DNA from: Mobula hypostoma
Lineage: Eukaryota
Length of the DNA stretch: 64,000 nt
Reading direction: 5' to 3'
Assembly (NCBI RefSeq): GCF_963921235.1
Contig: NC_086097.1
Location: forward strand, 41,232,001-41,296,000
Both the position numbers and the translations under genes were made by a program. Shown piece by piece: positions 21,496-26,769 of this stretch (its first letter is position 1; every line of letters starts with the position of its first letter). The notes below the pieces were generated by a model. That model was not told the origin of the DNA, did no database searches, and was given only the letters and a program-made list of their open reading frames with translations.

Positions 21496-22002
21496 GTCTA
21501 AACAATAGTGCAAGCTACTTTGTACCCTCACCTCACAGGAGTGACAGGAGTAGCATGGAGATGATACAATGGTTCTCCAGGGATGCCTGAGGCAAATTCC
21601 ATGTGCATAAGGAATTTGAAAGTTCCTGACACCAGAACAATAGACCTCCAGCTGAGAAATGCAGAAGGGGCCTCATTTTTCCACAACTTGATTGGGGATA
21701 GAAAGCTAGCTTAATAGAGGTGATTTTTTTTAAAAAAATTACTGTTATTACATCCTAGATTTGGCTAAAGTACAAATTGGACCAAAGAGACACATTCTTG
21801 AATGTAAACTGTTTAAAGCTCTTATAGAATCATCTGGTCCAGTTGCAAACAAGGTGGATGAAAGGTAATTGTAGCAATGGCGCTATTTAAACCTCTCCAG
21901 ACCAATCTTTTTAACTTATGCTCTACATTATCATCACTTTCTTCTTGCTAAGCAAGTTGTAGAAAGGTTCTGTGCTTGTTGTCTCAAAATTAATGTACTT
22001 TG

Positions 22003-22222
22003 TGTGGTAAACCATATATATGTTGTAACTGTCTGAACACACCCCTCTGCTGACTGCCCCTGTGGCTCCTCCCACAGATTCATGTATAAAGGTGATTTGG
22101 CCTTGCCTCTCCCCGTCAGTCCAGGGGCAGATACTCACCATGGAGGTCGTATTGTACAACGAATAAAAGCCTTTCAGTATTTTACCCAACTTCAGTCTTT
22201 TGGAGTTATTGAAGGTGCTTCA
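22003..22222 (+). repeat. 5' LTR of the Gypsy element (TATA tgtataaa ~22083, AATAAA 22162-22167)
   Basis: Direct repeat of 26242-26471; by eye about 13 substitutions and 3 indels between the copies. Confidence 0.95.
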
Positions 22223-22248
22223 ATTTTATTCGCTGTACATTTTAATAC

Positions 22249-23640
22249 ATGGAACATGCGCTGAGACCCAACAAATTAGACCTCAATCCACAAACGCCTG
22301 AAGCTGGAAATGCTTTCGAACTCTGGCTGGCCTACTTCGAAGCGTACCTAGAGGAGATTAAAGCGACCGACCCCGTAGCGAAGTGCAGAGTTCAACTCTC
22401 CAGGGTCAGTCCACGGGTCTATTCGCTGATCAGAGACCAGCCGAGCTAAGAGGGCGCAATGAGCACCCTCAAAGGACAATACCTGCAGCCGATAAACAGC
22501 GTCTATGCTCGGCACCGCTTAGCGACACGGCAACAACGCCCCGGGGAATCGAGTGCTGAGTTTGTCCGGGCCCTACAGACACTTGTGCGAGCCTGCAATT
22601 GCCAGGAGCTGACGGCGGCGCAGCATGCAGAGCTCCTAGAGAGGGACGCCTTTGTCACGGGGACCAGGTCAGTGTATGGGCGCCAGCAGCTGCTGGAAAA
22701 AGCCAATCTTACCTTAAGTTCAGTGATCGAGCTGGCCAACACACTGCAGGCCGCTCTGCATAACTCCGAGGCTCTCCAGGCACGCGATCCCCCGATGGCC
22801 TCGTGGGCGCCGCAGACCCTGCAACCCGCCGGCGAATCGACCTTGGCTGCTGCCAGTCGCGAGTCCACAAAGTGCTACTTCTGCAGACTCCAGAAGCACC
22901 CCTGGAAACGCTGCCTGGCTCGACAAGCTACCTGCTCCAGCTGTGGAAAGAATGGCCACTTCGCCAAGGTCCGTAAGTCCAAACCGCAAGCGAGATTGAG
23001 CAGCGTCACGTGCGAAACATGGGGGTCGCCATCTTGCCTGCTGCCATCTTCCCTGCACGCCGCCACCACGTGTGAGAGATGGGGGCCGCCATCTTCCCTG
23101 CACGCCGCCACCATGTGCGAGACATGGGGGCGGCCATCTTGGTCGGTGCCCCCTCCCACCACCTACGACCAACGGGTGCTCACGGGGCACCCCACCGCGC
23201 CGGACCAAGACAGCGACTCAACCCTGGCCTCCGTGACCCTTGACCAAAGCGCTGCCCACCAGCTCGCAAGGTCATTCTGGTGGAGGGGCGCAGGACAAGC
23301 TGCCTGTTTGAGACAGGCAGCACGGAGAGTTTTATCCACCCGGACACGGTGCAGCATTGCGGACTTGTGATATGGCCGGTAAGTCAGAGGGTCACCATGG
23401 CTTTCAGGTCGCATACAACAGACATTCGGGGGGGTTGTGTAGCGACGCTAGTGGTGCAGGGCACAGAATATCGAGACTTTACGTTACTGGTCATGCCTCA
23501 ACTGTGTGCCCCTGTGCTGTTGGGGCTCGACTTCCAGAGCCACCTGAAAAGCGTGACAATGAAGTATGATGGGCCCCTCCCACCAATTACTGTCGTAAAT
23601 CCCCAGTTTTGTAGGGATACGTCACATACCCCACTACTGA

Positions 23641-23681
<41 letters not shown>

Positions 23682-26147
23682 GACCCGCACATCCCACCCA
23701 ACACCATGCCAACTGTCGCACGACCGATACCACTTGCGGCCTCTCCACCCTCAAGATCCCTCCCCCACCGCTGTTCGCCAACCTGACCCCCGACTGTAAA
23801 CCTGTGGCAACTAAAAGCAGGAGGTACAGCGCGGGGGACAGAGCTTTCATTAAGTCGGAGGTGCAGCGGCTGCTCAGGGAGGGGGTCATTGAGGCAAGCA
23901 CAAGTCCTTGGAGGGCGCAGGTGGTCGTTGTTCGGAACGGGGAGAAAAATAGGATGGTCGTGGACTATAGCCAGACCATCAATAGGTTCACGCAGCTCAA
24001 CGCGTACCCTCTACCCCGCATCGCGGATGCGGTCAATCAGATAGCACAGTACAAGGTGTACTCGACCATAGACCTAAAATCCGCTTACCATCAGCTCCCC
24101 ATCTGCCGGGAGGACCACTCTTACACCGCCTTCGAGGCGGACGGTAGGCTTTATCAATTCCTGCATGTCCCCTTCGGTGTCACGAATGGTGTATCTGTCT
24201 TCCAGAGAGAAATGGACCAGATGGTGGACCAGTGCCAACTGAAGGCCACGTTCCCACATCTGGATAACATCACCATCTGCGGTCACAACCGGCAGGATCA
24301 CGACAACAACCTCCAAAAATTTCTCCAAGCGGCCAAAGCTTTCAATCTCACCTATAACAAGGACAAGTGTGTGTTCGGAACCACCTGACTTGCTATCCTT
24401 GGGTGTGTCGTGGAGAATGGAATCATTGGCCCTGACCCCGACCGTATGCGCCCCCTGTTGGAGCTCCCTCTTCCCAATACCCTCAGAGCCCTCAAAAGGT
24501 GCCTGGGCTTCCTTTCGTATTATGCCCAATGGGTTTCTAACTGCACAGACAAGGCCCGCTCCCTGGTCATGTCCACCACATTCCCCCTCTCAGCCGAGGC
24601 CTGCGCGGCCTTCAGCCCCATAAAAGGGGACATTGCCAAAGCAGCAATGCATGCGGTGGATGAGTCCATTCCCTTCCAAGTAGAGAGTGACGCCTCCGAC
24701 TTTGCGCTGGCTGCTACCCTCAACCAGGCAGGAAGACCAGTGACGTTCTTCTCCCGTACTCTTCAAGGCCCTGAAATTCGGCACTCCGCGGTGGAGAAAG
24801 AGGCCCAGGCCATAGTGGAAGCTATTAGGCACTGGAGGCACTATCTTGTCAGCAAAAGGTTCACTCTGCTAACTGACCAGCGCTCAGTCGTATTCATGTT
24901 TAATAACCAACAGTGGGGCAAAATCAAAAATGATAAAATTCTGAGGTGGAGAATCGAACTCTCTACCTACAACTATGACATCATGTACAGTCCTGGGAAG
25001 CTCAATGAGCCCTCCAATGCCCTATCCCGGGGAACGTGCGCCAGCGCGCAGATCAACCGGCTATACGCCCTACATGTAGATCTTTGCCACCTGGGAGTCA
25101 CCCAGCTTTTCCACTTCGTGAAAGCCCGGAACCTGCCTTACTCCATTGAGGAGATCAGGTTGATGACCAGGGATTGCCAAGTCTGCGCAGAGTGCAAGCT
25201 GCACTTCTACCGACCCGAAAAGGCGCAACTCATCAAGGCCACCCACCCCTTTGTGCGACTGAGTGTTGACTTTAGGGGCCCCCTTCCCTCCACTGACCGC
25301 AATGTTTACTTTCTTAATGTTTTCGACGAGTACTCGCCATCCCCTGCCCCGACACCACTACCACGTCAGTTATAAAAGCCCTGCACAAGCTCTTCACTCT
25401 GTTCGGATACCCATGCTATATCCACTGTGACAGAGGGTCCTCGTTTATGAGTGACGAGCTATGCCAATACCTACTGGCTTGGGGAATTGCAACTAGTAGG
25501 ACTACGAGCTATAATCCCCGGGGGAATAGACGGGTGGAAAAGGAGAATGCCACAGTGTGGAAAGCCACACTCTTAGCCCTCAGGTCAAAGGGACTGCCGG
25601 TCTCCCGCTGGCAGGAGGTCCTTCCCGAGGCACTCCACTCCATCCGCTCCCTGTTATGCACAGCCACAATGCCACCCCTCATGAGTGGCTCTTTTCTTTT
25701 CCCAGAAAGTCGACCACTGGGACCACCCTACCAACTTGGCTGACGTCCCCGGGGCCAGTGCTCCTCCGGAAACATGTGAGGAGCAATAAATACTCCCCGA
25801 TAGTCGAGAGGGTTCATTTACTTCATGCGAACCCTCAGTATGCCTACGTGGTTTTATCTGATGGGCGGGAGGACACAGTCTCCATCCGCGACCTGGCACC
25901 CGCAGGAGCACCGGGACCCTACCCTGAACACTCCGTGGTGACTATTGACCCCATAACCACCGATATATATACCCACAAGACACCGCGCACTCCAAGCCCC
26001 ACACAGATACCACACGACACTCCCATACCGGGCGCGACGCACACGCACGAGGGATTAACAATGCCTAACGTGCTGGCACCTGAAGTCAGGCCGGAGCCAG
26101 CACAACCGCCATCGCCGGTGGTATGTAGATCACAGCGACGGACTTGA
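22249..26147 (+). pseudogene. Gypsy gag-pol pseudogene
   Basis: Gag from ATG 22249 with an in-frame stop at 22447 and CCHC-like knuckles (CYFC...H...C; CSSCGKNGHF). Protease LFETGS (catalytic D to E). RT SPWRAQVVVV, YSTIDLKSAYHQ, PFG, HLDN. RNase H ESDASD. Integrase H..H..CQVC, VDFRGP, HCDRG, YNPRGN. Confidence 0.92.
23642..23681 (+). repeat. (CA)n microsatellite inside the Gypsy pol
   Basis: About 19-20 CA units between protease and RT. Confidence 0.95.
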
Positions 26148-26241
26148 CCGCCTGATAGACTTGACCTGTAAATATACTTCTTTTAAATATACTCAGTCAC
26201 TTCACCCCGCGGGACTCTTTTTTAAAAAAAGGAGGGGTGAA

Positions 26242-26471
26242 TGTGGTAAACCATATATATGTTGTAACTGGGTTAACTGTCTGGACACACCCCTCTGCTG
26301 ACTGCCCCTGTGGCTCCTCCCACAGATTCATGTATAAAAGTGATTTCGCCTTGCCCCTCTCCCTCAGTCTGGGGCAGACACTCACCATGGAGGTCGTATT
26401 CTACAGCGAATAAAGGCCTTTCAGTATTTTACCCAACTTCAGTCTTTTGACGTTATTGAAGGTGCACTTCA
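26242..26471 (+). repeat. 3' LTR of the Gypsy element
   Basis: Preceded by the PPT, followed by TSD CTTTG. Confidence 0.95.
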
Positions 26472-26769
26472 CTTTGAAAAGGAGAAAATCCATTGATGCA
26501 AATGTTGCACCAAGCCAGTCCTGTGCTCCTTTAAAAATATAAAGTCTTCACACAAAATAATCTGAAAAGTAGTTTCACAAGTGAGGCTAAGTATATCAAA
26601 GGAAGGAGGGCTAAAAATCTGATTGCATAGTACAACATTTTTAAAAGCAGAATGCCATTGAAAATGCACTTGGGAGGAAGCAACATGTGGTAATGAATGA
26701 CAATTTCCTTGCCACTTTGTATTGGTCTGGAAATTCAGCTGAACTCTTCACAACATGAGTCACTGAAAA

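Follow-up and report, generated by a model that had tools for sequence, protein, structure and literature searches.

The decayed Ty3/Gypsy element in the window analyzed here (the whole 64-kb stretch of ray DNA under study) probably primes minus-strand DNA synthesis with a piece of RNA from its own long terminal repeat (LTR), as Tf1 does. At the edge of the 5′ LTR, where a minus-strand primer must anneal, the only conserved complement is a segment of the element's own LTR, which points to a self-priming site of the Tf1 type.

The element is an LTR retrotransposon of 4,469 bp (4.47 kb) on the forward strand at 22003–26471, and all parts named below lie on that strand. It is bounded by a target-site duplication, CTTTG, whose left copy (21998–22002) and right copy (26472–26476) read identically over all 5 bases. 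The 5′ LTR (22003–22222, 220 bp, TG...CA) is a direct repeat of the 3′ LTR (26242–26471) at 92–94% identity, and its ends are shared by 30 family copies. Within it, TATAAA at 22085–22090 and TCAGTC at 22116–22121 predict, by motif spacing only, an RNA start near 22118. The gag region (22249–23370) encodes two CCHC knuckles and is interrupted by an in-frame stop at 22447–22449, and its N-terminus is conserved in relatives from residue 1. Repeat finding placed a tandem duplication of a 45-bp unit (2.2 copies, 92% match) at 23043–23140, in the C-terminal part of gag. Remnants of pol, spread over three frames with stops and frameshifts, extend over 23244–25743 and include protease, reverse transcriptase (RT), RNase H and integrase core (Pfam PF13975, PF00078, PF17917, PF00665). 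Between the protease and reverse-transcriptase remnants sits a perfect (CA)19.5 microsatellite (23642–23680), which reads as a Thr-His run in one frame. A polypurine tract (26224–26241) stands directly 5′ of the 3′ LTR, and similar purine runs precede the 3′ LTR of relatives. Pfam searches of the window frames and of relatives recovered the order gag-PR-RT-RNase H-IN with Gypsy-type domains, and the best match to an intact family relative among solved structures is Ty3 Gag-Pol (E 1.8e-62). The window element is thus an old, dead Ty3/Gypsy (Metaviridae) copy. In contigs of four DNA-like sequencing runs, the summed depth over 21998–22237 (LTR) is about 10 times that over 22238–22650 (internal), and many different flanks follow position 22222 in the same runs; the depth excess and the varied flanks fit the presence of many solo LTRs.

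The LTR is separated by a single A (22223) from the predicted primer-binding site, which occupies 22224–22239 and is identified by sequence match, fold and covariation. Its reverse complement has one mismatch to the 5′ arm, a segment of the 5′ LTR at 22153–22168 that would be the self-primer, and two mismatches to the 3′ LTR's own copy of that arm at 26400–26415. At up to three mismatches, the site has only three matches in the 64-kb window, where 0.57 would be expected, and three were reached in 2 of 100 shuffles. The 5′ arm, which has homologs in relatives, contains AATAAA at 22162–22167 and is followed directly by GCC. The loop between the two arms (22169–22222) comprises the rest of R and U5, includes a T/GT-rich stretch at 22197–22212, and folds on itself in the minimum-energy structure. 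RNA spanning 22110–22270 folds with 22153–22168 laid on 22224–22239 at −44.6 kcal/mol (z = −3.1), and only 2 of 200 shuffles did as well. These results agree with much of what the first-pass annotation of this DNA had claimed. Its statement that a TGG-type tRNA primer site is missing is borne out by reading the interval between LTR and gag, where the first TGG past the LTR end at 22222 is the one in the ATGG of gag itself at 22249–22252. Its description of 22224–22239 as complementary to an AATAAA-bearing segment of the element's own LTR was correct in coordinates and letters, and its placement of that segment about 65 nt 3′ of a TATA box corresponds to the 68 nt that we count between TATAAA and the arm. 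The further proposal that GTATT and AATAC extend the duplex did not survive comparison among family copies, because that extension is private to this copy (1 of 30), the other 29 reading AAAGC or AAAAC.

A 318-nt family probe searched in the 3.48-Gb genome gave 3,174 first-look candidates, and the 39 other places that were scored are 89–91% identical to it; copies of the family in this genome number in the thousands. The complement begins 1 nt past the LTR's CA, both in this copy and in the family. Among the 30 copies compared, the 16-bp duplex is perfect in 11, carries one mismatch in 11 and two or more in 7, and has a deletion in 1; the 5′ arm is identical in 22 copies and the primer site in 14. 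Seven of the 30 (L006, L011, L015, L016, L026, L027 and L029) share a C-to-A change at primer-site position 14 with the arm unchanged, and 5 of these 7 also share a nearby substitution; the common change indicates a subfamily that multiplied with only 13 matched pairs. In one copy, L024, both arms have changed yet still match. We do not count this as covariation within the family, since both changes are CpG transitions and could have arisen by chance. The pattern among family copies is one of shared descent and decay and by itself cannot show function.

Comparison with distant relatives provides the deeper view. Over its RT-RNase H-integrase piece, the element is 74–87% identical to proteins of rays and sharks and 53–62% identical to gag-pol proteins, about 1,200 residues long, that come from sea anemones, corals, nematodes and many unnamed assemblies. 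Scanning metagenome contigs yielded 124 stretches encoding a relative, 80 of which were kept, the distant relatives having 40–60% pol identity. Self-comparison of the kept stretches gave 19 repeat pairs, and 17 of them are true LTR pairs of 90–310 bp that lie 3.4–7.3 kb apart and flank the pol match; the pair in L032 was rejected as an LTR, and that in L045 was left out because it belongs to an element on the opposite strand. In all 17, the terminal CA is followed by one A and then by TTTA or TTTT and 9–14 more bases, together the reverse complement of a segment of the same LTR; the exception in spacing is L077/L080, with a few bases in place of the one A, and the pairing in 3 of the 17 carries one or two mismatches or a deletion. 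In these relatives, ...TAAA forms the end of the matched LTR segment, and GCC or ACC comes next.

A blind search of 50 loci took in the 900–3,300 nt that precede pol and asked for perfect inverted repeats at least 11 nt long with a loop of 20–120 nt. Such a repeat was found in 30 of the 50 loci versus 3 of 50 coding controls of equal length, and by reading, 21 of the 30 are of the primer-site type. Three decayed copies (L097, L084 and L095) keep the layout with mismatches. The inverted repeats upstream of pol in L043, L068, L070, L092 and L093 are not of the primer-site type, nor are the top matches in L035, L049, L084 and L108. In L092 (8523–8639) and L093 (2494–2610), the inverted repeat is a perfect one of 21 nt around a 75-nt loop; it stands upstream of a decayed relative and is probably part of a different inserted element. 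Across the relatives, the duplex measures 13–17 bp, the loop between arm and primer site is 33–66 nt long, and the stem ends 0–25 nt before the gag ATG.

For the analysis of covariation we assembled 15 sequences, one for each distinct arm. Over the first 13 positions, every one of the 195 cells is paired, a fraction that is inflated by the relatedness of the sequences and by the use of a perfect-repeat search to find the arms, owing to which pairing in the first 11 positions is partly by construction. The fixed position of the site, the comparison with the control region and the variety of pair types are independent of that search. At least two Watson-Crick pair types are found at 10 of the 13 positions, and a G:T pair in just 1 of the 195 cells. 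Sliding the partner by 1–3 positions lowers pairing to 29–49% in the same 15 sequences, and dealing the partners among the sequences in 2,000 trials gives a mean of 73% and a maximum of 84%. In a MAFFT alignment, pairing holds in 94.8% of 231 cells, and both sides have changed in 11 of 16 pairs, with slid partners at 29–48%; this alignment has a covariation score of 0.568, compared with 0.139 in shuffles, and none of 500 shuffles scored as high, counts that are not probabilities since the sequences are related. RNAalifold, unaided, predicts a 13-bp helix in which 9 of 13 pairs are compensated, and single compensated steps can be followed in sister pairs (L036 versus L038, L037 versus L035). 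The first-pass annotation had proposed covariation as the test of its idea, and in the distant relatives on which we ran it, the complementarity is conserved and covarying, which makes self-priming the best reading of these elements.

These comparisons bear directly on the possibility that a host tRNA, or else a tRNA fragment or some other small RNA, is what the site binds and that the match to the LTR is coincidental. The letters of the site differ between families and each site tracks its own LTR, so a host tRNA cannot explain the match; and because records of one assembly (WLWD01) carry three different arm sequences that each match their own LTR, a single host RNA cannot be the partner. The site also contains no complement to CCA. 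The tRNA comparison suggested in the first-pass annotation came out in favor of the element itself as far as it reached: the best of 55 host tRNA genes matches 9 of 16 positions with a longest exact run of 4, versus 15 of 16 for the element's own LTR, but these genes comprise 23 distinct sequences of three types only (Lys-UUU, Cys-GCA and Thr-CGU), taken from the best-scoring matches of a tRNA-model search of the genome and from 18 further 10-kb stretches. Against the same 55 genes of three types, the bases after the LTR fit a tRNA 3′ end at no more than 6 of 12 positions. The 64-kb window itself contains no tRNA gene. Covariation weighs more heavily against a tRNA partner than this three-type comparison does. 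Many of the lysine genes come from one array, a tRNA-Lys(UUU) cluster on contig C90 at about 4.02–4.22 Mb that holds 24 of the 30 fetched loci; ARAGORN counted 35 such genes over all 30 loci. PMC6317226 describes priming by half-tRNAs in copia-type elements, and this, together with the three-type scope of the host comparison, is what can be said for a host RNA, a partner that we nonetheless regard as very improbable.

Several positions of the duplex hardly vary. Counted from its inner end, positions 1–3 are A:T in 15, 14 and 15 of the 15 families and position 4 is T:A in 13; position 10 is G:C in 14 and position 11 is A:T in 13, and the remaining positions vary freely. The junction CA-A-TTT is invariant or nearly so across the 15 aligned families. 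An AG dinucleotide at positions 11 and 10 (alignment A2, columns 11–12) is fixed in 13–14 of the 15, usually after T-rich bases (TTTAG, TTCAG, CTAG), and in this setting we take it to resemble an initiator motif. An RNA start at that A would give a primer of 11 bases, as in Tf1, though the pairing runs 2–6 bp further out. In the last 420 bases of the relative L065, an arm ends in GAAAA instead of TAAA, with an exact 11-bp duplex that starts at the conserved AG; by eye, a TATATATA run lies about 25–30 nt before that duplex.

The inner end of the arm frequently coincides with a poly(A) signal. The first-pass annotation had the paired segment cover the AATAAA, which holds for this copy but fails as a general rule, a canonical hexamer (AATAAA or ATTAAA) ending the arm in only 9 of the 15 families. 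In 8 of those 9 it is the sole such hexamer between a point 120 nt before the arm end and the primer site; the other arms end in GTTAAA, TTTAAA, CATAAA or a decayed form. Most families have T/GT-rich stretches 3′ of the arm. In L037, an AATAAA with a GT-rich run lies 32 nt beyond the stem, and in L031 an ATTAAA lies 11 nt beyond it, which indicates that the invariant is the ...TAAA end and not the poly(A) signal as such. Overlap of the duplex with the poly(A) signal is common, not universal. Where the canonical hexamer is present (9 of 15 families), its enclosure in a stem that could form only at the 5′ end is true by geometry.

This overlap raises the question of whether the duplex might be a regulatory hairpin only, one that hides the promoter-proximal hexamer, blocks scanning to the gag ATG or does both, with minus-strand synthesis primed in some other way. 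Pairing is indeed possible only in the 5′ context, because the 3′ arm, the primer site, lies outside the LTR; nine arms end in a canonical hexamer, T/GT-rich stretches lie 3′ of most arms, and the stem ends close to the gag ATG. Yet the 3′ arm always begins exactly 1 nt past the LTR end, the place of a minus-strand primer, and the interval between LTR and gag offers no second candidate for a primer site. A signal-hiding device is also hard to square with the 6 of 15 arms that lack a canonical hexamer, or with L037 and L031, in which one lies outside the stem. Poly(A) sites close to the cap are in general little used, and an RNA start near the arm would leave the 5′ hexamer close to the cap anyway. 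We consider regulation without priming improbable. A comparison is offered by the HIV-1 poly(A) hairpin, which, like similar devices, is reported to silence the 5′ copy of the retroviral poly(A) signal. As in HIV-1, the hexamer in R is placed in a stem; unlike in HIV-1, this predicted stem is formed with the primer site, which lies beyond the LTR, and is thereby 5′-specific by construction. That the duplex of the ray element would hide the 5′ poly(A) signal and close the path to gag is predicted from geometry only.

Self-priming would proceed by steps that the conserved layout predicts in some detail. The leader would fold so that the arm at 22153–22168 lies on the primer site at 22224–22239, and the element's RNase H would cut between ...TAAA and the conserved GCC or ACC. 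Synthesis from the 3′ end released in this way would run across the A spacer and U5 as far as the new 5′ end, and the resulting short strong-stop DNA would be transferred to the 3′ R by way of the bases between the cut and the poly(A) site. In the second half of the cycle, plus-strand strong-stop DNA would copy the primer, and the primer site would in this way be rewritten from the arm in each cycle; such rewriting would explain how the arms can diverge and yet remain complementary, nearly free of G:U. The duplex would incidentally also enclose the hexamer's 5′ copy, and its end lies 0–25 nt 5′ of the gag start codon. If the primer were longer than the duplex, part of it would remain as an unmatched tail at the second jump, and for this reason its 5′ end is predicted at the outer end of the duplex. 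Taken at face value, the predicted RNA start about 35 nt upstream of the arm would mean that the primer is not 5′-terminal as in Tf1 and that, unless trimmed, it would carry an unmatched tail at plus-strand transfer. It is possible, if on balance doubtful, that in this animal lineage one RNA module of 13–17 nt does four jobs, serving as the poly(A) signal at the 3′ end, as the cut-off primer at the 5′ end, as the means of hiding the 5′ signal and as the closure of the path to gag, with its match renewed in each cycle so that the pair drifts freely without mismatch.

The same complementarity could in principle act over a longer distance. The partner of the primer site might be the arm's 3′ copy, or the arm in another RNA packaged alongside, and such pairing would circularize or dimerize the genome for the first transfer; alternatively, the 3′ copy might be the source of the cut primer. 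Both LTRs contain the arm, which is hence found at both ends of the RNA, its 13–17 bp of pairing is longer than Tf1's 11 nt, and a 5′–3′ bipartite primer site has been described for Ty3. Sequence cannot by itself separate pairing in cis from pairing in trans; nevertheless, the local 5′ fold is strong on its own, and pairing with a distant arm would still require a primer and the same cut after ...TAAA. Such an arrangement therefore seems to us unlikely as an account of the site, and we retain self-priming from the local 5′ arm as the preferred reading.

The closest precedents are fungal. PMC7175516, PMC5341516 and PMC4600332 present Tf1 and Tf2 of Schizosaccharomyces pombe and Tj1 of S. japonicus as self-primed Ty3/Gypsy elements with no tRNA site, and the first two of these sources describe, for Tf1/Tf2, a self-primer from the R region that is cut off by RT and then extended. 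The ray element and its relatives resemble these elements in having a primer site just 3′ of the 5′ LTR that is complementary to a segment of their own LTR and R. They differ from Tf1 in a duplex of 13–17 bp whose arm has a 3′ end in ...TAAA followed by RCC, and in the predicted position of the ray RNA start upstream of the arm; they differ from all three in belonging to an animal lineage of elements of about 4–4.5 kb with no detectable chromodomain. Most folds of the 15 sequences contain a small stem starting at RCC, of mean length 4.3 versus 3.1 in shuffles (3 of 15 individually at or below 0.05), and this post-arm hairpin, which would parallel the U5-IR stem of Tf1, was not significant against shuffles in that set.

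Likeness in priming does not seem to extend to clade. Tf1/sushi elements are chromodomain-bearing chromoviruses, and the first-pass annotation had likened this element to the Tf1/sushi type. A chromodomain (PF00385) was absent in 6 relatives at E up to 1 and in the window frames at E up to 0.01, so the element does not fit the Tf1/sushi group as usually defined. For the vertebrate members of that group, self-priming is predicted according to PMC6317226 and PMC4600332. Similar in form is the Mag lineage (Mag, SURL and Jule), whose compact elements live in animals and lack a chromodomain; LTR lengths of about 130–310 bp are tabulated in PMC3601003. Size, LTR length and host range of the present elements resemble those of the Mag lineage. 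Jule, an element of a fish, measures 4.8 kb and has 202-bp LTRs. The point of difference is the primer: mosquito elements of the Mag lineage have primer sites for tRNA-Leu, tRNA-Ser or tRNA-Arg, according to PMC3286476, and unlike these insect members, neither the ray element nor its relatives have a tRNA-Ser or tRNA-Leu primer site.

In the searchable literature, self-priming is experimentally established only for Tf1 of fission yeast and its close relatives and is elsewhere predicted; PMC6317226, PMC4600332 and PMC7175516 extend that prediction to Tcn1-like chromoviruses and the TAR copia lineage of plants. Our full-text searches, which lie mostly outside subscription journals, returned neither a report of self-priming in the present lineage nor a link between self-priming and the poly(A) signal. 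The same signature defines a large lineage, without a detectable chromodomain, that is spread from invertebrates through to rays and is present in this genome in thousands of copies. It provides a rule for annotating elements that are currently scored as having no primer site, and its fixed junctions (...TAAA/RCC and CA-A-TTTA) yield precise predictions of where cleavage and initiation would occur. The frequent overlap with the hexamer may also offer a simple system in which to ask how LTR elements silence the 5′ copy of their poly(A) signal. If the reading is true, independence from host tRNA would be a recurrent strategy of LTR elements and not a fungal oddity.
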